From Candidatus Bathyarchaeia archaeon (GTDB taxonomy: Archaea > Thermoproteota > Bathyarchaeia > Bathyarchaeales > Bathycorpusculaceae): a DNA stretch of 64,000 nt. Numbering within the stretch: the stretch's first letter is position 1; the number at the start of each line of letters is the position of its first letter. Shown here piece after piece: positions 1 through 64,000 of the stretch. Where the stretch lies: assembly GCA_049512075.1 (NCBI GenBank), contig JBEKXL010000003.1, positions 143,688 through 207,687 of the forward strand, given 5' to 3'. The notes under the pieces were generated by a model that was not told the origin of the DNA, made no database searches, and worked only from the letters and a program-made list of their open reading frames with translations. The position numbers were made by a program, and so were the translations under genes.

Positions 1-159
1 AAAGGCTCTCGTACTGACATGAATTTGCGAATTCGTTATATGGGCGAAGATTTTGGCACGGGCTTAGACCAAAAAACAAGCGTGCAAGCTCCAAACCACA
101 AGGAATGTGGAAAACCCATAATTCTTAAATCCCTAGGACGAAGAACTAAAGGGCGAGTA

Positions 160-21569: not shown

Positions 21570-21711
21570 TGGTGGGGTCGCGCGGATTTGAACCGCGGAC
21601 CTACGGGTTTCTCCGTGACAGCTCCAGAACTTCGTCATTCCAGCGTTCTGGTCAGCAAACCCGTTTCTACATTCTGGAGCCCGTCGTCATACCTGCCTAG
21701 ACTACGACCCC
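21570..21711 (-). tRNA. tRNA-Trp(CCA) with 65-nt BHB intron at 37/38 (21609-21673)
   Basis: Acceptor GGGGTCG/CGACCCC plus ACCA; anticodon arm ACGGG-CTCCAG|A-CCCGT; T arm CGCGG-TTCAAAT-CCGCG; BHB CTCC/GGAG with AGA and AAA bulges. Confidence 0.97.
21609..21673 (-). ncRNA. Intron-encoded box C/D guide RNA of tRNA-Trp
   Basis: Guide AACGGGTTT followed by G and D' box CTGA (N+5 gives C39); C' ATGACGA; second guide TTCTGGAG complementary to the anticodon loop. Confidence 0.85.
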
Positions 21712-50519: not shown

Positions 50520-51113
50520 ATGAATGAAATGAGCAAGAGAAAACCGTCCATACACCTCCAGAACATAGTTGCTTCAGCGACGGTCAATCAGAGGATTAGC
50601 TTGAAAACGATTGTTGAAAAGTTTCCGCACGCCGAGTACAGTCCAAAAGTGTTTCCTGGGCTTGTTTTCCGGTTGAAGAAGCCCAAGACGGCTACGTTGA
50701 TATTTGAAACGGGCAAGATGGTTTGCACGGGGGCGAAGTCGGAGAAGGAAGCGATTCAGGCGGTTAATAAGGTGACGAAGGAGCTGAAAAGCCATGGAAT
50801 ACCAATCACCAACAAACCGGTTATCACCATACAGAACATCGTTGCTTCGGCGGAGTTAAACGGGGAAATAGACTTGGAGAACGTCGTTTACAAGCTCAAG
50901 AGAGTGATGTATGAACCTGAACAGTTTCCAGGAGCGGTCTACAGAATGGAGCAACCGAAGGTCGTGTTTCTCATATTCTCAGCGGGAAAGCTGGTGTGCG
51001 TGGGCGCTAAGAAAGAACAAGACGTCTATGAAGCGGTTGGCAAGCTTCAGGCATTACTGGAAGAACAAGAGCTCATTTTCTACCCAGAAGAGAAGGCTGC
51101 GAGCACTGGGTAG
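50520..51113 (+). CDS. tbp: TATA-box-binding protein
   Basis: Two repeats QNIVASA...Y.P..FPG...LIF..GK.VC.GAK. Confidence 0.98.
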   Translation: MNEMSKRKPSIHLQNIVASATVNQRISLKTIVEKFPHAEYSPKVFPGLVFRLKKPKTATLIFETGKMVCTGAKSEKEAIQAVNKVTKELKSHGIPITNKPVITIQNIVASAELNGEIDLENVVYKLKRVMYEPEQFPGAVYRMEQPKVVFLIFSAGKLVCVGAKKEQDVYEAVGKLQALLEEQELIFYPEEKAASTG

Positions 51114-52893: not shown

Positions 52894-53481
52894 CTAGATC
52901 TTTAAGAACTCATCGAGCAGGCCTTCATTCTCCAGTTTGCCCAGCCAATCCACAACGCCCACACAGCACTTGCTGGAATCAGCCATCACTTCCAGCATTG
53001 CGCCGACGATTTCTTCTGCACTCTTCCCTGTGACGTCCAATTCGCAGGTTCTTCCTTCCCCTCCCGCGTTCAAGGCGTCCACCAAGCACACATCCAATAT
53101 TTCAGAGGCCAGGTTCTCCATCATCTTGGGTTCAGAAAAGCCGCACCGTTTCATGAACTCCCGCAGCTCAACAGGATCACGCCTCAACACGAACACGAAC
53201 GTCACAAGTTTCGGTGGAACAACGCTGACGGCGTAATGCCCATCAATTACAACTTCCTCCTTGTCTGTTTTCTCGACTAGCTCACGAATTCTCTTTCTCA
53301 TCCTTGATTCGTCGACTATAATCGTATCTCGCCTCTCATCTTTTCCTGAGGTAAGATGATCTCTCAGGGCCAAGTCGGTCAAGTTGATGTACAAAGCGTC
53401 AAGCTTGGCTGTAAGCAAACGTGCTACTGAAGTTTTTCCAACGCAAGGCGTTCCAGTTACCAAGATGACGCGTTTAGGCAT
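52894..53481 (-). CDS. Adenylate kinase AK6/Fap7 family
   Basis: GTPCVGKTS, IDGH, ENLASEILD. Confidence 0.9.
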   Translation of the reverse strand: MPKRVILVTGTPCVGKTSVARLLTAKLDALYINLTDLALRDHLTSGKDERRDTIIVDESRMRKRIRELVEKTDKEEVVIDGHYAVSVVPPKLVTFVFVLRRDPVELREFMKRCGFSEPKMMENLASEILDVCLVDALNAGGEGRTCELDVTGKSAEEIVGAMLEVMADSSKCCVGVVDWLGKLENEGLLDEFLKI

Positions 53482-53568
53482 GGGTAAGCAAACCTTACTG
53501 GTTCTAGTTAGGCGCGTGGCAAAATAAGGTTTCCAAAATTCTTATTGCACACCTGTGTGCACTCTATC

Positions 53569-53891
53569 TTGGGCTGGCGAGTCGGTGTGTGGCTTTCGAG
53601 CCTCATATTGGAAGGCTTGAGGAAACTCCGCCCACGCGTAGAATTGCAACGCTCGAAAGGGCGTAAGGTGAGAACCTTGGCTACGGAGCAGAAACGAAAC
53701 GTCCGCCCGGCAAATGCCTATGACACATGCTAAGTTGTCGAGAATGCCGGGTGTGAAACGGTGAAACGGCCGTCCTGCAAGTGGAAAGGGCAAACAGACG
53801 CCGATGAAGAATCTACCTGAAGCGCGGGTAGCCCGATTAGCCGAATGCCACAAAAAACAAAAGGCGGGTTACGGCCAACACACCAGCCCAA
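53569..53891 (+). ncRNA. rnpB: RNase P RNA
   Basis: CR-I GAGGAAACTCCGCC, GCAGAAAC, TGAAACGG, CR-V ACAAAAGGCGGGTTAC; P1 TTGGGCTGG/CCAGCCCAA; TATA-like CTTATT upstream. Confidence 0.95.
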
Positions 53892-54778
53892 TTTTACTGC
53901 ACACCGCCGAAATTCTAAACGTACTAATCCAAATGAAGAACGACAACAAAAGCGACTACACCATAAAATTCACAAACAAAGCACTAACATTCTTGAGCCA
54001 ACACACCAGCTTAAACGAACCAGAAGCAGTTAAAGCACTAATAGCCAAACTGCAAACCCGAAACGGATACAAACGAAACCTCTGCATAGCCTACAACAAA
54101 TACTGCAAGCACTACCAAATAGAATGGAAAATGCCCCACTACGAACCCGAAGCCCAAAACATCAAACTACCAACCAAAGAAAGACTGAACATGCTCATAG
54201 CAAACGCAAGCCAACCACTCGCACTAAAACTAACTCTCAGCATGGAAACAGGACTCAGACCCGTGGAACTATGCAGATTAAAAGTCAAAGACGTAGACAC
54301 CGACCACAAAGTAATCAACCCGATAACAGCCAAACACGGAGCACCAAGAACCCTGAAAATATCTAACAACCTAAACGAAAGAATACAAGAACACATACTG
54401 AAAAACAACCTCACCGCAAACGACAACCTATTCAAAGGCACATCCGACGACTACGGAAAACACTACCGAGCCATGAGAAACGCACTAGCACAGAAACTCA
54501 AAGACCCAAACATACACAGCATAAGACTATACGACTTCCGACACTACTTCTGCACGACAACTCTACACAGAACCAAAGACCCATTCTACACCATGACCCA
54601 AATGGGACACAAGAAACTAACAACGACACAGAAGTACATGCATTTACTAGACCTTAATGATGATGAATGGACAGTCAAGACAGCCACCAACATCAAAGAA
54701 GCCACAGAATTCCTAGAAGCGGGATTCGAATACATTCAAGAAATAGACGGAATCAGACTATACCGAAAACGCAAATAA
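53804..54778 (+). CDS. Tyrosine recombinase/integrase whose 5' end overlaps rnpB
   Basis: ETGLRPVEL (R), TAKHG (K), YDFRH (xxR), MGHK (H), TQKY (Y). Confidence 0.9.
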   Translation: MKNLPEARVARLAECHKKQKAGYGQHTSPILLHTAEILNVLIQMKNDNKSDYTIKFTNKALTFLSQHTSLNEPEAVKALIAKLQTRNGYKRNLCIAYNKYCKHYQIEWKMPHYEPEAQNIKLPTKERLNMLIANASQPLALKLTLSMETGLRPVELCRLKVKDVDTDHKVINPITAKHGAPRTLKISNNLNERIQEHILKNNLTANDNLFKGTSDDYGKHYRAMRNALAQKLKDPNIHSIRLYDFRHYFCTTTLHRTKDPFYTMTQMGHKKLTTTQKYMHLLDLNDDEWTVKTATNIKEATEFLEAGFEYIQEIDGIRLYRKRK

Positions 54779-54931
54779 AACACAAACAACCCTTCTTTTT
54801 TCTATTCAATGTCATGCTTAACCAATATGTCGCGCTCAGCTTCGCTTCGCGCTCCAACCGCGCGCGCTAGGTTCGCCTAAAGTTTTAAATTTTGATGGTT
54901 CATAGATTTGTGAATTGGAGGAAACATCATT

Positions 54932-55555
54932 TTGTCATGGGAAGGTTCAATATTGCTTGAAAAGGGCGAAAAGATAGTGACTTCTTGGCGAGGAAACCGA
55001 GAAATGACGCAGAAGGTTGCAGTAAGAGGTCAATATGGACGACAGAGAATAGAGGACGCAAAAGAACGCAAGAATGGTTTTCTTGTACTGACAAATCAAA
55101 GGCTGTTGTTTCTAGAAGAGCATGGAGTATTTAGCAAATCATATCACCAAGTGCTTGCAATACCCTTAGGAAAAGTCAGTGGAATATCGATGGGCGGCAT
55201 GCTCTCTCCTTTTGTCTCAATAGCAGACGATGTCGGAGCGTGCATGTTCCATTTGTGGGGCATTGGAAAAAGTCAATTTGAGCCTTTCCGACAGCAGATT
55301 ATAGATGAATGCCGAAAAAGAAGGGAAGAAATTGAGACAGAGAAAAAGAAAGAGAGGGTTCAAGTGGTTCTAGATTTTTCAGCACTTAAGGACTACATGG
55401 AAAAAGGCGGGCTAATACTTCAAAAAATGAAATGCCCAGAATGTGGAGCACCGTTGACGCTTCCAACTGTGGGAAATCAAACCAAGTGTGATCACTGCGG
55501 GAGCATGATCTATGCGCAAGATATTTTCGAGAAAGTAAAATCACTAATTGGGTAA
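54932..55555 (+). CDS. PH-like domain plus zinc ribbon protein
   Basis: GFLVLTNQRLLF, CPECGAPL...CDHCG. Confidence 0.75.
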   Translation: MSWEGSILLEKGEKIVTSWRGNREMTQKVAVRGQYGRQRIEDAKERKNGFLVLTNQRLLFLEEHGVFSKSYHQVLAIPLGKVSGISMGGMLSPFVSIADDVGACMFHLWGIGKSQFEPFRQQIIDECRKRREEIETEKKKERVQVVLDFSALKDYMEKGGLILQKMKCPECGAPLTLPTVGNQTKCDHCGSMIYAQDIFEKVKSLIG

Positions 55556-55589
55556 GCTTACAATCCCATGGTAAAGTCAGAGTGATGCG

Positions 55590-55790
55590 ATGTTTAATGA
55601 AAAAGGGCGGAAAGACAAGTGCTACGAATGTGGAGGTTCTCTTGAGCTTTTTGAGATTGACATGGAGAATGGAACACGAATAATGAAATGCCAAGTTTGT
55701 GCGCTCTATCATTTCTACAAAAAGGATTTTCTAGCCAAATGGAAACTCAGCAAAGTCAGTAAGGAAGTTCACTCTGGTACTGAACAATAA
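55590..55790 (+). CDS. Small zinc-ribbon protein
   Basis: CYECGG...CQVCAL. Confidence 0.6.
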   Translation: MFNEKGRKDKCYECGGSLELFEIDMENGTRIMKCQVCALYHFYKKDFLAKWKLSKVSKEVHSGTEQ

Positions 55791-55910
55791 ATCGACAGCC
55801 CGCGCGTTCACTCGCACGTTCCAGACGATACGTCACAAACAGCCGAGCGCGCGCTAGAAAAAACTCTTTTATAATGAGATACCACTTTAGTCCATGGAAG
55901 TTGTCTACCG

Positions 55911-56336
55911 ATGAAGGGTAATCCTCTATTCGGAGCATGGAGGCTGAAATCGCTTGAAACAAAGGCATCTGACGGATCTGTCTCCTATCCGTGGGGGAAA
56001 GAAACTCTTGGTTACGTCGTCATCAGCCCAGAAGGCTACTTTTGCGTCGCAATAATGAGCGCTAATCGCAGAAGATTCTCCTCACAAGATATGAAGGGAG
56101 GTAGCGCGGAAGAAAGAGCGAACGCTGCAGATTCATACATATCGTACTCCGGACCGTGTGAAATCGAGAAAGACAAGTTTCGAGTAAAGGTAGAAGTCAG
56201 CCTGTTCCCAAATTGGGTAGGCGGAATCCAAGAACGCAACTACAAGATCGAGGGAAAAACGCTCTCTGTATCGACTACTCCAACTCTTGTAAACGGAAAA
56301 GAACAGGTAGGCTACTTGATTTTCGAACGCGTCTGA
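55911..56336 (+). CDS. Lipocalin-like domain protein
   Basis: LFGAWRLKS, YISYSG, SLFPNWVG, final FERV. Confidence 0.85.
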   Translation: MKGNPLFGAWRLKSLETKASDGSVSYPWGKETLGYVVISPEGYFCVAIMSANRRRFSSQDMKGGSAEERANAADSYISYSGPCEIEKDKFRVKVEVSLFPNWVGGIQERNYKIEGKTLSVSTTPTLVNGKEQVGYLIFERV

Positions 56337-56467
56337 AACTGATCGCGCGCGCATGATCAAGCCGAAGTTTTGAAGCCCCAAGATCCAAAAGCTGTAAGCC
56401 GAGCCTCTTCTAGACTTCGAAAATTATTAAAGCACTATTACGCATATCATACCTTCTGGGAACATAA

Positions 56468-56560
56468 ATGCCGAAAAAAGAAAAACCGTTAACTAAGAAA
56501 GAGCGAGACGAGAAAAGGAAGAAACATAAGGAAAAGCAAAGCAAAACACAGGCTTCTTAA
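56468..56560 (+). CDS. 30-aa Lys-rich microprotein
   Basis: MPKKEKPLTKKERDEKRKKHKEKQSKTQAS; TTATTAAA box upstream, T-tract downstream. Confidence 0.45.
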   Translation: MPKKEKPLTKKERDEKRKKHKEKQSKTQAS

Positions 56561-57064
56561 GCCCCAAGAAAGAGCTTTGCAAAACTCTTTTTCTCTTTTT
56601 ACCATAAAGTTGGCTTCTTTGATGAAATGAAAGAAAGACGCGTCAGTTTTGGATATTATTGGCTTCCTCCATTAATGCGAAAGAAATATGTTTTAGCTTG
56701 TTTATTTATCGTTAATTTGTAGCTGAGATTTATGCCGAGTGTAATGAAACGTAAACAAAAGAATACTCAAATCGCACAACAGAAAAAGACAGAACGGGAT
56801 AAAGAAGCGAAAAAGAAACAGTTGAGACAGCAACTTCCTGCCAAGGGCAAGAAACGTTAAAGCCACTAAAGGAGCTATGGTAACCATCTAAAAGCTTATA
56901 CCTAGAAGACAACAATACAGCGCGCGCTGTTCTGGAAAGACCGAATGAACCAAACTGGCGAAATCTTCATTGCAGTTGAGGTATATAGTGGATACATTCA
57001 AAGAAGAACTTGGGCGACAGATTTGCCCGCCTTAGTCGTCTAGAGTGCGATTTGGGTTTACGCC

Positions 57065-57601
57065 CTATTCTTCTTTTTCTTTCATGTCCAGCAGCATATG
57101 TTTGGCAAGGGTTGAGAAGGTTAAGTATCGATAGTGCACTTTGTCATCAAGGTCTATTATGAAACTGTGAAGTTCATACTTGCTTAAGTGAGCAAACTGT
57201 TTTAGCCATCGTTGGAACTGCATGTAGCCAGAATAGCTTTCATGAAGGGAAATCACAACACCGTTGGCGCCTTCGCCTAGGCCTCTTTCGATCATCACGG
57301 CTTGAGGTATTTCCGCCAATCTTTTTCCATATTCCTCGATGAGCTTCCTCATGGCTTGCAGGTCAGTTGGTGTTTCGAAATTCGCAAAAGTCAACGCGCA
57401 TAAGTGATATCCGAGTTTGTTGAAATCCGGGATAACAGTGTATTCTCTGAGAACATCATCCTTCTCTAACTTCGCAATCGTTCTGCTCACGGTAGGTTGA
57501 GAGACTCCAATTGCTTTCGCAAGCTCTCTGTCGCTTCTCCGACTGTTCTTCATAAGTTCAGAAATCAGACGGCGCTCAACAGGTTTCATATGCAACAACA
57601 T
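57065..57601 (-). CDS. Lrp/AsnC family regulator
   Basis: LMKNSRRSDRELAKAIGVSQPTVSR...YTVIPDFNKLGY. Confidence 0.9.
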   Translation of the reverse strand: MLLHMKPVERRLISELMKNSRRSDRELAKAIGVSQPTVSRTIAKLEKDDVLREYTVIPDFNKLGYHLCALTFANFETPTDLQAMRKLIEEYGKRLAEIPQAVMIERGLGEGANGVVISLHESYSGYMQFQRWLKQFAHLSKYELHSFIIDLDDKVHYRYLTFSTLAKHMLLDMKEKEE

Positions 57602-57644
57602 GACACTATTCCGAATGCTGGGCAGTTAAGTTTTTTGTTTCAAT

Positions 57645-58013
57645 CTATTCAAGTGCGCATGCAGAAATATCCTGACTTTGCCACTTCTTTCCACGGATAA
57701 ATCCTCCATACTTGCAGAATAACATCAGGCCTATTGCTACTACAGTTACAGGATAAATGAAGAGAATAACAGTCATGGTGGTAGAATTTATCCAAACTGA
57801 AGGACCATGTTGCAAGACTAACACTAATCTATAAAGCATAGGAAAAGGGTTGAAAACAAAGAAAACATAACTCCAGACAGAAACTACAGCATCAATTGTA
57901 ACGTACAGAATCCCGTCATTCACCAGTATCGTCAAGAGTAAGCTTACTATTCCATAGACTAAAAGAAAATAGACTAGCGCGCACGCTAATTTGCTCATGG
58001 CTCCACTTCCCAT
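57645..58013 (-). CDS. Hypothetical membrane protein
   Basis: Three hydrophobic segments; AT-rich. Confidence 0.5.
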   Translation of the reverse strand: MGSGAMSKLACALVYFLLVYGIVSLLLTILVNDGILYVTIDAVVSVWSYVFFVFNPFPMLYRLVLVLQHGPSVWINSTTMTVILFIYPVTVVAIGLMLFCKYGGFIRGKKWQSQDISACALE

Positions 58014-58362
58014 TGCGAATCAAATACAACTGCGATGTAAAATATGCTTTTGGTTTGGACAAGACTATACCCCAACCTTAATCTGAACACTGTTCACAAG
58101 TAATGCCGATGCAGAACAGAGAACCCGATGTATCTTCGGAGTGGCTCATGAAAAATGCCGGGCCAGTTACCAGATATCACACCGCCGTGAGCTTCTTACC
58201 GAAGAAGGAAGAGCTCCAGCTCTAAAAAAGACCTTATGACCAACCAACGTGTAACACTTATTCCCAGAATATTCTGGGCAGACCCGATGTGCCTTCGGGA
58301 TAACTTGACTTTTTTTTACTTGCGCGTTCGCACATGGAAAGAAAGAGAGGAAAATGCTGAAG

Positions 58363-58758
58363 TTATGGATGCATTGGCTGCAGTATGGCGAATTGGTTGC
58401 CTTCAGGATCAACGGCTATTGCTGTCCAGCCTACTTGCGGAACTTCTTGCTTCGCAACAATGATCTTTCCACCGAGCTTCTTGATTTTTTCGATGTATTC
58501 ATCAGCGGACTCGACTGAAATGTAGATGACGGGCTTCATCTCCTTATTGGTCTTCTTGTACAAGCCTCCATTAACGCCTGGTCGCATAGGTCTCATCTGC
58601 TTGTCCACTGGTACCGTGCCGAGAAGCCAGTATTCCATGGGTCCACTCATGTCTTCGCTGCCTTTCTCGATCTTCCATCCGAAGACTCCAGAATAGAATT
58701 TCTTCAGTTTCTCGGTGTCGTTTGCCGGGATTTCGAAATGAACAACTGTGTGGTCCAT
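58363..58758 (-). CDS. VOC/glyoxalase family protein
   Basis: VVHFEIPA, FYSGVFGW, INGG-like VNGG, DPEGN. Confidence 0.92.
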   Translation of the reverse strand: MDHTVVHFEIPANDTEKLKKFYSGVFGWKIEKGSEDMSGPMEYWLLGTVPVDKQMRPMRPGVNGGLYKKTNKEMKPVIYISVESADEYIEKIKKLGGKIIVAKQEVPQVGWTAIAVDPEGNQFAILQPMHP

Positions 58759-58900
58759 TATTTCCACCTCTATTTTCGTCAACACAATGTCTTCGAGCTA
58801 ATTAAATGTATGTTGCTCATGGCCACTGCATCAACGCACCTTAGGTTTTCGGGTTCTGATTCGACAGGTCCGCCCCAGCGCCCATACGTGTTCCGCGCGC

Positions 58901-59070
58901 GCTGAGCGCCGTGAACAAGGCTACAGTTCCCGCAATAATCATCGAAACGATAACAGCGGGCCCTGCATAGCCCACAGCAATCCCCAGCACAACGAAAATT
59001 CCCGCACCAATTATCGCTCCAACCCGATTGCCGAAGCGTCCAGAAGATTGAGGGTTCTTTTCAGCTCCAC
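58901..59070 (-). pseudogene. N-terminal fragment of an APC amino-acid permease (frameshifted, truncated)
   Basis: MELKRTLNLLDASAIG/VGAIIGAGIFVVLG...AGPAVIVSMIIAG.VALFTALS, then ends in a (GC)4 run. Confidence 0.85.
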
Positions 59071-59177
59071 TATTTTCCCCTTGACAAATCTGAAAACGTA
59101 GCGCGCGCTAGCATTTTCATCTGTCTTTTGTCAAGTTCGTCTGTCGCGTATACTTAGGGGCAAGCATGAACCGATAA

Positions 59178-60146
59178 TTAGCGCGCGCCAGATGCGAGTT
59201 TCGTTGGCAAGACATCATCACGAGAGTCTGGCGATTTTCGTGTTGTTTCACTCTTGGTTGAGGGTTTTGGTGGTTCTATTCTCACTTTTATTTCCGTCAC
59301 CTCATCGAATTCTTTCTTCACTTGTTCCTCTATCTTTGTCGCTATCTGATCAGCTTCTCTCACCGACATGTCGCCGTCAACTACAACATGCATGTCACCT
59401 ACCAAGTATGGTCCCAGCTTTCGCATACGAATGTCATGCACTTCTCTAACATTCTTGACATCCTTTGCAATGTTTTCTATATCCAACAGTATGTCTGAGC
59501 ATTGACACGCGTCCATTAGGATCAGTGACGATTCTTTTATCACTGAGTATGCCACGGTGAAGACGAAGAAGGCGATTATTATTCCAGCAATGGAATCTGT
59601 CACTCTGATGTTCAAGTATTTGCTCAAGGCTATGCCGACAAAGGCTGTTAAAGAAGTGAGCACATCTTTGGTCGAGTTGAACGCATCTGCCTTGAGCGCT
59701 AAGGAATCATATCTTCTTGCAGCGCGAGCTTTAAAAAATAATATTACCCCTGCTACAGCGGTTGCTAAGAGTGCGGTTGCCATGGCTATCTCTGCGTTGA
59801 CTATCTCTCTGGGAAAAAGCAACCCCTGGTAAGACTCATAAAGGACCAGTCCGCCCGAAACAGTCAAGACGAAAGCGGCGATTATGCTGCTGAAATTCTC
59901 AACTCTGTAATAGCCAAAATGAAATTTGCCATCTGGGGCTTTTCCCGATAATCGCAAACCAACCCAGACGATCAACGAAACAGCGGCATCGGCGAAGGAT
60001 TGGACACCATCAGCGATTAACGCAAGACTCAAGGAGAATATTCCAACGAACACTTCGGCTATGCCCACCAGTACCAGAACCGCAAAAGATTTTTCCGCAA
60101 CTGCTCCGCCTTTGGCAAGTCTGGTTGACTGCAATCTACTAGTCAC
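59178..60146 (-). CDS. CDF family transporter
   Basis: SLALIADGVQSFAD, PDGKFHFGYYRVE, LKADA, RIEP. Confidence 0.9.
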   Translation of the reverse strand: MTSRLQSTRLAKGGAVAEKSFAVLVLVGIAEVFVGIFSLSLALIADGVQSFADAAVSLIVWVGLRLSGKAPDGKFHFGYYRVENFSSIIAAFVLTVSGGLVLYESYQGLLFPREIVNAEIAMATALLATAVAGVILFFKARAARRYDSLALKADAFNSTKDVLTSLTAFVGIALSKYLNIRVTDSIAGIIIAFFVFTVAYSVIKESSLILMDACQCSDILLDIENIAKDVKNVREVHDIRMRKLGPYLVGDMHVVVDGDMSVREADQIATKIEEQVKKEFDEVTEIKVRIEPPKPSTKSETTRKSPDSRDDVLPTKLASGAR

Positions 60147-60230
60147 GTTCCCAAGCTAGTCCTTGATATGGATTATAGCACGCGCTTATAGGGTGTCGGT
60201 ACTGCCGGTTGTCTGGGGCGCGCTAGTTAC

Positions 60231-61157
60231 CTACACCGGAGTTAACCATTCTTTGTGTTTCTCCGCTTTTCCAGCTACCAAGTCCGTGTAGTATTCAGCT
60301 GTACGCTTCGTTACGGGTCCAGGATACTCTTTGCCCAGGGGCAAGTCATCTATGCTGGTTATCGGAGTGATCTCCCCACCAGTTCCACACAAGAAAACCT
60401 CATCAGACCCATAAAGCTCAACGCGCGCGATGTCCCTCACCTCAACTGGAACGTCTAAATCTTCTGGTATTATTTTGAGAAGCGTTTCTCTCGTGACACT
60501 CTCGAGAATTGACGCGGTCACTGGCGGAGTTACCACTTTTCCATTTCTCACTACCATTATGCAGGCGCCGGTTCCTTCACTGATAAAACCCCGGTTATCC
60601 AAGAATATTGCGCCATCACGACCCAACCTCACGGCTTCTCGCAGCGCTAAGGCAGAATTGCCGTAATTAGCCCAAGTCTTCGCCTGTGGAGGAAGCGCAT
60701 CGGAAGCGATACGTCGCCAACTGCTAATCATGAACCTGCGATTCTTAGAAAACTGCGGGTTGTCCCTGCCCAGAACGGTCTCGAAGGTCCATGCTGGAAT
60801 GACGATATGAACGTCTTGTGGTGCTCCGGCCTTTGGCCAGATTCTGGGTTGAATGTAAACGTTCGTGTCGAAACCATTAGTCTCAATAGTCTTTCTTGTG
60901 GCCTCAAGAAGCTCCTCGTTGGTGTAAGGTATCTTCATTCCACAGACTGCTGCAGACCGGTGGAGACGTTCAACGTGAGGCGTCCATCGAAAAATGTTCA
61001 ATTTCCCTCTGCTCTTGACATCATTCTCTACGTAAGCCTTTATTCCCTCGAAAATGCCGAGATGTATAGGTTCCATGGCAGAGACAAGCGCCTTTTCAGT
61101 CTCGATGATCTCACCGTTCATCCAACAGAACTCTGCACCGTGAAATGCAACAGACAT
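60231..61157 (-). CDS. ilvE: Branched-chain amino acid aminotransferase (class IV PLP)
   Basis: FEGIKAY, HVERL, AK..ANY, ISEGTG, ILESVTR, FLCGTGGEITP. Confidence 0.88.
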   Translation of the reverse strand: MSVAFHGAEFCWMNGEIIETEKALVSAMEPIHLGIFEGIKAYVENDVKSRGKLNIFRWTPHVERLHRSAAVCGMKIPYTNEELLEATRKTIETNGFDTNVYIQPRIWPKAGAPQDVHIVIPAWTFETVLGRDNPQFSKNRRFMISSWRRIASDALPPQAKTWANYGNSALALREAVRLGRDGAIFLDNRGFISEGTGACIMVVRNGKVVTPPVTASILESVTRETLLKIIPEDLDVPVEVRDIARVELYGSDEVFLCGTGGEITPITSIDDLPLGKEYPGPVTKRTAEYYTDLVAGKAEKHKEWLTPV

Positions 61158-61249
61158 AAACGGACAGCACCCCCGAACAAAACCTAAGCTCGCAACGCCC
61201 CATATTTATGAGTTTTGATGCAAACCATGGTTGATCTCGCTATAAGCGT

Positions 61250-61406
61250 TAGCCTATGCCTGATCCTAAATTCGTCTGCGAGGCGGCTTTTGCTTCCGGT
61301 TTTCATTCGTTCATGGATCGTGGTGTGCATTTGGATACTAAAAGCGTCATTTAGAAGGCGAAACTTAAGCGTCATTTAGCCAAAATTTAGGAACATACGT
61401 GCGTAC
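61250..61406. mobile_element. MITE-like element, copy B
   Basis: Ends ATGCC-TGATCCTAAATTC (61256-73) and AATTTAGGAACA (61384-95); interior aligns without gaps to the reverse complement of copy A. Confidence 0.65.
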
Positions 61407-61484
61407 AATGGTTAGCACATGGTTACAGCAAAATCTAAGTAAGTGCGCAGCTCCTCACGCTTCGGGGGGCATTACACGACGCGT

Positions 61485-62288
61485 ATGACCCATGCTTCTT
61501 CTCCAGAAACTCCTCCCGCAACAGGCCAGCCGCCGTCAGTAAGCACGAGGTCAAGGAAGAGGTTCTATGCCGTGCTAGGGATTATTGCGGTTGCTGCTGT
61601 TGCTCTAACCCTCGTACTGGTTTTGACACCTCCAAGTGTGGGCGCAACCATACCTTTGACGTACAAATACACTCCAGGAGAGGAAATGACCTACAACGCG
61701 ACCACCATAGCGATGCCGGAGGTTGGAGCGAACATAACAGAACCGGACACAGTCGGAATGGACATCATCAGTTTCGACGGAGAAAACTGCACGATCAACG
61801 AGACAGGGTCAGCTCCAGCGCTTGGTTACTATCAAGCCTACTTCATTTTCACCAGGAACAGCACCGGCTATATAACGTCTGTTAACGGCGTGCCCTGAAG
61901 CGGGTTGTCTTCCGCGTACAGCCATCTTCAGTTTTTCTTTCCGAAAGAAGAGGCAAGGGTGAACGACACCTGGCAAGTTCCGGTGAACTCGAACAATTCG
62001 TTGATTGGTTACAACGGAGTTTTCACCTACAAGTTCGGTAGCGTTAAGAAAATCACGGTACCCGCGGGCACGTACAAGGTCTTCAAGATAGACGTTTCAA
62101 GCAGCAACCTAACGAGCTCGGTTACCGAAAACCTTGTGTTCACATTCGATGTTCAAGCGTACCTTGAGTACGGGACCTGCTGCATGATTGATGCCAACAT
62201 TCAAAGCAGCTTAGGCATTGCAGGGGGCCAGACTGTTGAGAACTCCACAACAACAACACAGGTGACGCTCATAAAGCGCACATTGTAG
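61485..62288 (+). pseudogene. Membrane-anchored beta-rich exported protein split by an in-frame TGA (61896-61898)
   Basis: ORFs 61443..61898 and 61905..62288 share a frame; N-terminal TM, ITVPAGTY motif. Confidence 0.7.
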
Positions 62289-62608
62289 CATATAGAACGC
62301 CTTGGAACATGAGAAGCATCGCTCAGAGGGGCATTCTTAACTCGATCAAGCTTGGAAGAATGAATTCAGGAACAAGCATGCACGCACTTTCGGCAGTGCA
62401 ATCAAATCCTCATTAGAATGCGGAGTAATATCTCCTTTTGCAGTGGATGGAGGTAGAGAAAGGGGCTTTGCGGGAGATGCCTCCACTGCTGGGGTGTGGG
62501 AAGCACCACTTCTGTCTCTGGGAATAACGCGTTATACTGAAGCTGTCATAATTCCAGACTGGTAAAGAGTTCTTTCTGCAACCTAGTGGGGCTGTCGCTT
62601 GTTTTCTT

Positions 62609-63337
62609 CTAGACGGGCTTGTTGTAGTTTAGGAGGCCAATCCAACCGCAGATTACGCGGGTTTTCGCCTTCTCATCGTCTAACGTTACCTCTATCGGCG
62701 GGCGCCCTTCAGGTGCTTGTTTAAACAGGTACTTCTCGAAGCGTCTTGCCCAATCCACTTTGAACAGTGCAATTGCAAACGCTATCCCGACACCTGTGCT
62801 TATCACCAAGGACATTAGGTCGCTTCCTACGCCAAATATGTCCCTGATGATGCCTATTGAAAATCTACTGCCGTAAGCCACAGCTAGGCTCAAGAGTAAT
62901 TTCCCAGTTAGGGCAGGCGCGAAAGCTTTGATTGGATTGTAACGGGAAGCGCCGAGCGGAATGAAAACCAAGTCATCGGGCAGGGGTGTCAAGGCAAAGG
63001 CAAATATCGCGATGGCACCGAACTTGTTGAAGACCTTGACCAGAAAATCCACGTTCTTCTTGTATTTTCCAGTTATGACTTTCTTACTGCTGAGGCCGAG
63101 TAAATACCCAGAGAGTTCTCCGATTGCTCCGCCGAGTGTTGCAGCTAAGGCAATCAGCAGAGGCGCAAAGACCCAACCGCCGCCAATCTTGAGGCCGGCA
63201 AGAGTGAAGACAACAATCGTATCCGGAACTGGTACAATGATGGACATGGCACCAGCCAGGCTCATGACAAATACTCCCAAATATCCGTACTGCATGCAGA
63301 GATTGTACATCCAAGTGAAAATGCCTTGGAACTGCAA
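62609..63337 (-). CDS. VTT/DedA (SNARE-associated) membrane protein
   Basis: GAIGELSGYLLG, FALTPLPDD, GK. Confidence 0.88.
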   Translation of the reverse strand: MQFQGIFTWMYNLCMQYGYLGVFVMSLAGAMSIIVPVPDTIVVFTLAGLKIGGGWVFAPLLIALAATLGGAIGELSGYLLGLSSKKVITGKYKKNVDFLVKVFNKFGAIAIFAFALTPLPDDLVFIPLGASRYNPIKAFAPALTGKLLLSLAVAYGSRFSIGIIRDIFGVGSDLMSLVISTGVGIAFAIALFKVDWARRFEKYLFKQAPEGRPPIEVTLDDEKAKTRVICGWIGLLNYNKPV

Positions 63338-63454
63338 CGTGATTCCTCCAGGTGTCTACAGCGCTAATCCGACATCCTTTGCATTATTAACTGTTATTCA
63401 GAATTAGACACGATTTTGTTCACAATCTGATCATACGCTTTGCGCACGCAACAG

Positions 63455-63990
63455 TAGTTTCCCCCGGAGCAAGCTCCGGGGCTCTATGGTGTTGCTTCTT
63501 CTTGTTCTTCTCGTATGTATTTTCTGACGGCGTCGAGGTTTAGTCCGCCTACTGTGTTAACGCAGTATCCGCCTGCCCAGAGCCTTCCTTCCCAGAGGTG
63601 CCTCTTTAGGTCTGGAAACTCTTGGAAGAGCGTCCTGGCGGTTATGCTTTTCAGGGTTCTCACAACGTCGGGTATGGCCTGTTTGGGTTGTAGTTTGAGT
63701 AGGACGTGTATGTGGTCGGGGGAGACTTTCAGCTCATCCAGAGTGTAGCCGTACTCATCAGCGACTCGACGGATAACCTGTTCAGCCCTTTCACCCACCT
63801 TGCCCCGCAGTATGTTCCGCCGGTACTTTGGAACCCAGACGACGTGGTAGTAAAGGTTGTGTACTGTGTGCGCCCCGGCCTCCATCTCCAAGGTTATCTC
63901 CACATTTTCGTAACACACGCTCAGTATAAAGGCTTAAGTGGGGGAATTCACCGCCCGGGGCAAGCCCCGGGGTTCTCTTCCCCCACACCC
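63455..63990 (-). mobile_element. IS200/IS605-family element, tnpA only
   Basis: Sub-terminal hairpins CCCCGGAGCAAGCTCCGGGG (63462-81) and CCCGGGGCAAGCCCCGGG (63954-71) bracket tnpA. Confidence 0.88.
63484..63918 (-). CDS. tnpA: Y1 HUH transposase
   Basis: YHVVWVPKYRR, DHIH (HUH), LKSITAR, LWAGGY, KYI. Confidence 0.95.
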   Translation of the reverse strand: MCYENVEITLEMEAGAHTVHNLYYHVVWVPKYRRNILRGKVGERAEQVIRRVADEYGYTLDELKVSPDHIHVLLKLQPKQAIPDVVRTLKSITARTLFQEFPDLKRHLWEGRLWAGGYCVNTVGGLNLDAVRKYIREEQEEATP

Positions 63991-64000
63991 TTGAAATAGA

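Follow-up and report, generated by a model that had tools for sequence, protein, structure and literature searches.

The window described here, a stretch of 64,000 nucleotides (nt) from a Candidatus Bathyarchaeia archaeon (contig JBEKXL010000003.1, positions 143,688 to 207,687; coordinates below are those of the window unless another contig is named), contains a tyrosine recombinase gene lying directly behind rnpB, the essential gene for the RNase P RNA. Comparison with related genomes gives good support to the view that this junction is the left attachment site (attL) of an integrative element which targets rnpB and not a transfer RNA (tRNA) gene. The end of rnpB forms the core of the attachment (att) site, the recombinase represents a family of integrases that recur at such sites, and the codons upstream of the ATG shared by its close members are constrained as coding sequence. 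On balance we favour, with modest confidence, the explanation that the short-form integrase genes of this family, in which little DNA separates att from the conserved coding part, span the att site of the circular element (attP), their promoter, ribosome binding site (RBS) and start codon lying on the other end of the element and being cut off by integration.

The rnpB-integrase junction

The Rfam model RF00373 was matched over its full length (model positions 1-288) at nucleotides 53577-53883 with 186.5 bits (gathering threshold 84), and the two strands of helix P1 (53571-53577 and 53883-53889) are complementary. The gene is covered at high depth by metatranscriptome contigs. From an ATG at 53804, within rnpB, the integrase frame runs uninterrupted to a stop codon at 54776-54778, specifying 324 amino acids (aa) of which residues 1-29 are rnpB-encoded. 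Only 41 nt separate the end of rnpB from the next in-frame ATG (53933, Met44), and no Shine-Dalgarno-like motif was found in this interval. The initial annotation had noted that the frame is open from within rnpB, that there is no room for a promoter or RBS of its own, and that the ATG at 53933 appears to fall inside the first helix; each of these observations was borne out, the last by an AlphaFold2 model in which the first helix comprises residues 34-46.

The short T run just behind rnpB is a possible weak terminator of that gene, judging from its sequence, and T/A-rich runs follow att in most of the homologous loci. Metatranscriptome contigs from two runs, considered over 53000-64000, cover rnpB to about 53885-53886 and none lies on the integrase, though contigs of this sort can show neither absence of a transcript nor its ends. 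A contig from DNA run X1 which joins 53890 to 55808 was not used, having only 25 nt on its shorter side.

rnpB as an integration target

Homologous DNA was gathered from related genomes, GTDB species genomes and metagenome contigs at a minimum of 55% identity, which gave 90 distinct upstream sequences. The 89 with an ATG at the Met44 position were kept; the remaining locus, L168, was misregistered by one base. In 69 of these 89 loci the integrase gene lies directly 3' of a full rnpB, and in a further 16 it is found behind a 23-30-nt fragment of the rnpB 3' end only. No att was found in the other four, two of which have hardly any upstream sequence.

The 23-nt att core recurs downstream of rnpB, as direct copies with 0-3 mismatches, in relatives G002 and G004 (four copies each), G023 (three), G030 and G003 (two each). 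These copies bound segments of approximately 1-15 kilobases (kb), often arranged in tandem. Such elements, which carry a direct repeat of the rnpB 3' end at either border and leave the gene restored, are present in G002, G003, G004, G023, G030, G245, G147, G475 and others. At the level of the order, the 23-mer (up to 2 mismatches) was detected in 144 of 251 genomes, about 37 of which carry two or more copies. Homology between the window and genomes of the same genus ends at the border of the att core, at 53888 in G002 and G004 and at 53891 in G003. The close homologues are patchily distributed, being present in 23 of 332 genomes of the family and in 17 of 401 genomes of a class-wide sample.

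The recurrent adjacency, the att direct repeats and tandem arrays in relatives, the patchy distribution and the break in synteny at 53888-53891 together support rnpB as the target. The earlier proposal that this element uses rnpB instead of a tRNA gene was therefore upheld. Close homologues are found behind rnpB, the 3' end of which is duplicated in relatives, and only distant paralogues (30-38% identity) adjoin tRNA genes, in like manner. One such case occurs in the genome of the window itself, where two paralogous integrases (L003 and L004) lie 2.3 kb apart at a tRNA-Arg gene on the opposite strand (contig C1, approximately 294.6-300.8 kb). The second of them follows a tRNA fragment, which is preceded by the same motif that marks the far ends of the rnpB elements, and the pair resembles a tandem array situated in the 5' part of the tRNA gene.

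The cargo of complete elements in relatives is variable and includes genes for an AAA ATPase, a paralogue of the TATA-binding protein (TBP), a HEPN protein and helix-turn-helix (HTH) regulators; no replication or capsid genes were recognised in it. The TBP paralogue (L169, contig C44, 4853-5410) lies inside a 4.9-kb att-bounded element of G030. The TBP gene of the window (50520-51113) is upstream of rnpB and outside the element. A second, degenerate full-length rnpB (83.5 bits, just under the 84-bit cut-off) was encountered in G021 (contig C1, 259746-260952; L172). The integrase behind it is the closest to that of the window among the species genomes (73% identity), and the locus is separate from the good rnpB of G021, which carries an integrase of its own.

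The integrase

Residues 131-282 contain a PF00589 domain (66.9 bits, cut-off 27.1), the only Pfam family to score above its cut-off. The catalytic residues Arg152, Lys177, Arg246, His269 and Tyr278 are invariant in an alignment of 28 sequences and align to those of XerA and IntI4; Tyr243, likewise invariant, replaces the first His of Xer proteins. The AlphaFold2 model (mean predicted local distance difference test score, pLDDT, 82.4) shows a two-domain Xer/Cre-like fold, for which the top Foldseek matches were XerA (5hxy; E = 3e-11), IntI4 (2a3v), Tn1549 Int, XerH, Cre and lambda Int. By both sequence and fold, XerA (5hxy, 4a8e) is the best relative. Residues 1-30 are predicted with pLDDT below 50. 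Beyond the catalytic Tyr, a 37-residue extension is predicted to form a strand-helix-strand-strand unit (strand 289-294, helix 297-305, strands 309-314 and 317-323), in which Glu288, Glu305, Gly307, Phe308 and Lys-Arg-Lys 322-324 are invariant in the same alignment.

Two assignments were considered and rejected. The protein is not the XerA equivalog (NF040815, 78.4 bits against a cut-off of 220), and its gene is patchy and multi-copy. An integron integrase had been suggested by weak IntI matches and by cassette-like boundaries at CG tracts, and TIGR02249 scored 48.2 bits against a cut-off of 265. Among the 11 PDB sequence matches with E values of 1 or less, no entry is labelled as an SSV-type integrase from an archaeal virus. 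The window's own genome contains 18 matches to the integrase family, and 961 relatives were found in databases, the named ones being from Bathyarchaeota. No close relative was found among the viral contigs searched, the best match having 33% identity.

The coding strand of the integrase gene is extremely A/C-rich (A 0.44, C 0.28, G 0.15, T 0.14), its neighbours being balanced in composition. RNA of this composition could hardly fold. At the right ends of elements in the relatives G002, G003, G004 and G030, the 300 nt that precede the downstream copies of att have an A-rich, T-poor bias as well.

Coding constraint upstream of Met44

The seven codons that precede Met44 vary mostly at their third positions, with second positions nearly fixed, a 3-periodic pattern of the synonymous type (mean column entropy at positions 1/2/3 of 0.94/0.30/1.40 over 89 loci). 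The same pattern is seen in the 27 loci that possess no canonical in-frame start upstream of Met44 (0.91/0.20/1.19). These codons form most of the predicted first helix, and the Met44 position is occupied by Leu or Val in more distant paralogues. Judged from the columns of this alignment, the codons for Ile37-Gln43 are under coding-type constraint. In addition, fourteen relatives, here called long forms, have a Shine-Dalgarno sequence of the GAGGTGA type together with a start codon (ATG or GTG) that lies between att and Met44, 96-105 nt before the latter. Taken together, the constraint, the position of the helix, the Leu or Val of the paralogues, the 27 startless loci and the starts of the long forms argue that the true start lies upstream of Met44.

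In the short-form loci, 42-95 nt lie between att and the Met44 ATG. A conserved 11-nt DNA motif follows att in 48 of 71 such loci, and with respect to the integrase it occurs in each of the three frames (28/9/11), which indicates that the spacer is constrained as DNA and not as protein. A copy of 14 nt of the att core within the gene (53997-54010) was considered as an internal attP and rejected; the match is 12-14 nt long only in the window and in L091, whereas 77 of 81 loci show 4-9 nt, as is also the case elsewhere in the gene, and the gene is contiguous across it.

The far ends of the elements

At the far (right) ends of the elements in relatives, att is adjoined by a conserved DNA motif. 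An ATG-initiated frame reads into att at all of the right ends inspected, with a Shine-Dalgarno-like motif before the ATG in most; in a second type of far end, a GTG, ATG or TTG stands 8-10 codons before att. Each far end was joined in silico to the left end of its own element, mismatched pairs serving as the control. The far-end frame ran stop-free into its own integrase in 12 of 16 elements, with all three frames represented, as compared with 45.4% of the mismatched pairs (permutation p = 0.016 for these first 16 pairs). Among pairs with an att identity of at least 22/23, ten of twelve were in frame. Natural in-frame junctions were also recognised, in that the first residue of four of 120 database homologues lies 2-9 residues ahead of the att-encoded peptide; six of the 120 begin with an ATG that is located in the spacer or at the att end. 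At the 13 natural junctions that combine non-rnpB upstream sequence with a short-form integrase, no in-frame ATG precedes att. The authors of PMC7253208 argue that tandems which bring split integrases into frame would restore a complete gene and be lost by excision, and this would explain such an absence. Nine of the 13 upstream sequences, however, are not of the common far-end type.

Four rows were set aside from the 16-pair comparison: G413 (a long form with its own start; not fused), G057b (a paralogue with its own spacer ATG; not fused), G002 element 1 (orthologous to G004 element 1; fused by eye) and G004 element 2 (integrase deleted). Retention of G057a, which is of the same kind as G057b and fused, was inconsistent. 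The 417-aa open frame of G056 was rejected as uninformative, its upstream part running through unrelated DNA behind a degenerate att.

Proposed course of integration

In the explanation favoured here, integration would restore rnpB with element-derived sequence and place the integrase gene directly behind it. Short-form genes, including that of the window, have no RBS, promoter space or dependable start of their own on the rnpB side of att. In the excised circle the frame would most likely begin at the far end, with an ATG, GTG or TTG located 2-60 codons ahead of att, and reach the first helix by way of the att core and the spacer. Integration would sever the gene from its translation start, as in integrases of the SSV type, and the part beside rnpB would still encode the whole folded enzyme. 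In the integrated state, any expression would depend on transcription that reads out of rnpB, and translation would start at Met44 or at a chance in-frame ATG inside rnpB, such as that at 53804.

A number of observations weigh against this explanation. Two additional pairs, G084 and G551, proved not to be fused, so that 12 of 18 are in frame; inclusion of the rows set aside makes this 13 of 21. The close-clade short forms taken alone (8 of 12 in frame) are not significant by themselves. The far-end frame stops 5-17 nt before the Met44 ATG in G475, G030 and G023 and 55 nt before it in G379, and the att pairs of G475 and G030, both out of frame, are identical. G454 was scored as fused only by way of a distant ATG, all of its frames being open. 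The far-end motif beside att is read in differing frames across elements and is consequently not conserved as protein. In L091, which has the closest relative of the integrase at a non-rnpB junction (94% identity), a stop codon occurs eight codons before att, with no start. Tandems are reported in PMC7253208 only for non-suicidal integrases, and tandem arrays are common here. Lastly, for the copy in the window no attR, far-end motif or N-terminal part of an integrase, int(N), was found in the 86-contig assembly, in which the contig ends 10.1 kb downstream.

The suggestion in the initial annotation that the gene is the C-terminal, int(C), half of a split integrase is thus only partly sustained. 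It agrees with the relatives, both in the 12 of 18 pairs in frame against 45% of mismatched pairs and in the four database proteins that begin just before the att peptide. It sits less well with the six pairs out of frame, with this copy having neither attR nor int(N), and with a split that falls upstream of a whole folded protein.

Alternative starts

An ordinary, non-split integrase beside att, starting at Met44 (281 aa) and perhaps coupled to a short leader in the circle, would make the frame through rnpB an artefact of gene calling. We consider this unlikely, despite the Met44 ATG in 89 of 90 distinct loci, the call of about 53 of 120 database homologues from that codon and a nearly invariant ATGA. 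The three pairs whose far-end frame does not match, ending 5-17 nt before the ATG, would suit termination-reinitiation, and tandem arrays are typical of non-suicidal integrases according to PMC7253208. A start at Met44, however, would delete most of the predicted first helix and would leave the coding-type constraint on seven upstream codons, evident even in the 27 startless loci, as well as the Leu or Val of the paralogues, to be accounted for; nor is there a Shine-Dalgarno-like motif or promoter space ahead of it. Initiation at a non-canonical codon at or near Ile37 (AUU, AUC or AUA), deliberately weak on the rnpB side of att, would fit the sharp beginning of conservation at codon -7, the region further upstream showing no coding-type constraint. 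An AUN codon stands at this position in 56 of 71 short forms, compared with 4 of the 14 long forms, whose genes carry a start of their own; a single locus, L065, has GTG. Each of the three Ile codons is used, however, 15 of the 71 short forms have Phe, Leu, Val or Tyr codons instead, no Shine-Dalgarno-like motif precedes them, and literature evidence for AUH initiation in these archaea was not found; such a start appears quite improbable.

Least probable of all is a selected rnpB-integrase fusion, in which read-through transcripts of rnpB would be translated from an ATG inside that gene. The frame is open from such an ATG in the window, 39 of the 58 rnpB-adjacent short forms have some in-frame ATG, GTG or TTG upstream of Met44, and 24 of 120 database homologues are called with rnpB-derived N-termini. 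Against this, the frame of the integrase relative to rnpB varies among the 58 loci (31, 17 and 10 in frames a, c and b, respectively), and 19 of them possess no ATG, GTG or TTG between Met44 and the first upstream stop, which is about the chance level. Two of the three frames of this rnpB sequence are open with an ATG, and the openness of the integrase frame through rnpB is no more than chance. The peptides in database N-termini are translated from two different frames of the same RNA sequence, and the residues concerned in the window (1-30) are predicted to be disordered. By these comparisons the rnpB-encoded extension is incidental and not itself selected, and translation from inside rnpB did not stand as a conserved feature.

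The start across att, which we prefer, can be extended into a broader proposal that we advance tentatively and regard as rather doubtful. According to it, XerA-like integrases of mesophilic Bathyarchaeia would have arrived independently at a 'suicidal' layout in which att occupies the outermost 5' part of the frame. On integration the promoter, RBS and start would be exchanged for the 3' end of rnpB, and the highly transcribed rnpB with its chance in-frame AUGs would be the sole route to expression for excision, a built-in switch between integration and excision. The long forms, which belong to the same clade, would represent transitional states that link the two types of archaeal integrase.

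State of this copy and the downstream DNA

No attR or second rnpB 3' end was detected in the 86-contig assembly by an exact 12-mer scan, a 23-mer scan allowing up to 4 substitutions, or BLAST; the earlier observation that the window contains no second copy was confirmed (up to 3 mismatches) and extended in this way to the whole assembly. The right border of the element was not found in 54779-64000, the end of the window being the end of the contig. Pfam domains in this DNA (Table 1) are those of a zinc-ribbon protein, a lipocalin-like protein, an HTH regulator, a glyoxalase, a cation efflux protein, an aminotransferase of class IV, a VTT domain protein and an IS200-like transposase, and pieces of it match G002 and G004 at 88-99%.

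That this copy is a stranded relic, an old insertion which lost its right end, is no longer mobile and was kept by chance or co-opted by the host, is quite possible, if short of likely. In favour are the failure to find attR in the assembly, the mosaic nature of the downstream DNA and the situation in G002, where the orthologous integrase (73% nucleotide identity) is broken and innermost in an array of four att copies, and where the genes behind it match 56386-63437 of the window at 92-98% with no further att. On the other hand, the integrase frame is intact with all catalytic residues present, and the contig breaks off 10.1 kb downstream, at an IS200-like gene present in multiple copies, so that attR may merely be missing from the assembly. 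A relic of this kind describes the condition of one copy and is compatible with a split gene; the copy may be an old stranded insertion with its integrase still intact.

Table 1. Features of the rnpB-integrase locus in the window.
Feature	Coordinates	Strand	Basis
rnpB, archaeal RNase P RNA gene, intact	53571..53889	+	RF00373 match, P1 complementarity
ATG inside rnpB opening the 324-codon frame, incidental	53804..53806	+	frame counts in homologues
att core, last 23 nt of rnpB, common to attL, attR and attP in relatives	53866..53888	+	direct copies in relatives
Spacer from att to the conserved coding part, with degenerate att-like DNA motif	53889..53911	+	survey of motif and frames
T run just 3' of rnpB, element-supplied	53892..53895	+	read from sequence
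Codons Ile37-Gln43, part of predicted first helix, coding-type constraint	53912..53932	+	column entropy, AlphaFold2
Met44 ATG, sole canonical start common to all close homologues	53933..53935	+	alignment of loci
Integrase body, tyrosine recombinase	53933..54778	+	PF00589, alignment, fold matches
Conserved C-terminal extension after the catalytic Tyr	54665..54775	+	AlphaFold2, alignment
Accessory-gene mosaic to the contig end	54779..64000	.	Pfam, matches to G002 and G004

The IS200-like transposase gene (PF01797, E = 8e-41) is found at 63484-63918 on the minus strand. In one run the DNA depth there is about 7-10 times that of its flanks, and a multi-copy insertion sequence (IS) probably broke the assembly at this point. 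Alternating CG tracts (54859-54872, 55846-55858, 56342-56356 and 56919-56932) occur at segment boundaries, and the segments they bound match different places in G002, G003 and G004, sometimes inverted. A low-GC segment of 540 bp (56386-56927), which contains two small frames rich in Lys and Glu, shares 98.5-99% identity with G002 and G004, the flanking orthologous DNA being 85-94% identical; it could be a recently exchanged or a strongly conserved module. Elsewhere in the window, an Rfam tRNA match spanning 139 nt (21573-21711, minus strand) would be intron-containing; ARAGORN reported no tRNA anywhere in the window.

Significance

No report of rnpB as an archaeal attachment site was found in full-text searches of the literature, although supplementary tables or island catalogues may list targets other than tRNA genes, and neither 'RNase P' nor 'rnpB' occurs in a 2021 review of archaeal tyrosine recombinases (PMC8371274). 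The present locus adds the RNase P RNA gene to the stable RNA genes which serve as landing sites for archaeal mobile elements, and with hundreds of members the att site and the integrase family are open to comparative study. For annotation it is of consequence that gene callers give these integrases at least five kinds of N-terminus, two of which are translations of rnpB in different frames. Should the start codon truly lie across att, split 'suicidal' integrases would not be confined to the SSV-type families of thermophiles, and the presence of split and unsplit layouts in one clade would make the origin of this paradoxical arrangement directly testable.

Comparison with known systems

The type I integrases of SSV1, pTN3 and pT26-2 resemble the present one in that att probably lies inside the integrase frame and integration into a structural RNA gene parts the start from the rest. 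In both, the remaining part is found directly behind the RNA gene, the promoter of which it could use; according to PMC8371274, int(C) of pTN3 lies behind a tRNA promoter and has in-frame starts near its beginning. The target here, however, is rnpB and not a tRNA gene, and the protein is XerA/IntI-like with a PF00589 domain and no SSV-type match. Elements differ in the frame in which att is read, tandem arrays are common, and long-form relatives in the same clade keep their own start downstream of att. Unlike in SSV1, the break would occur 2-60 codons into the frame and before the whole folded enzyme. The rnpB-side part, which in the AlphaFold2 model retains the entire predicted fold, beginning with helix 34-46 and extending to the C-terminus, would not be a crippled half, and the inactivity of both halves that characterises type I would not apply to it. 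The hosts differ as well, being Bathyarchaeia of peat, wetland and sediment here and hyperthermophiles in the case of SSV1, pTN3 and pT26-2.

XerA shares the two-domain architecture of the integrase, the gene of which, unlike that of XerA, is located at att repeats, is patchy and multi-copy, and appears to specify an additional C-terminal domain. P4-type islands and prophages at the 3' ends of tRNA or transfer-messenger RNA (tmRNA) genes are similar in having a tyrosine integrase at attL, an att core that is the restored 3' end of the RNA gene, flanking direct repeats, tandem arrays and variable cargo; the RNA gene here is instead that of the RNase P ribozyme. The integrated forms of the integrative and conjugative elements ICEKp1, ICEclc and ICEEc1 use the adjacent host tRNA promoter for int, and their circles a promoter at the other end, as described in PMC13023037. 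By analogy, the same logic of transcription would apply to the rnpB element. Those are bacterial conjugative elements in which int keeps its own start codon, whereas here the translation signals, together with the promoter, seem to lie across att.

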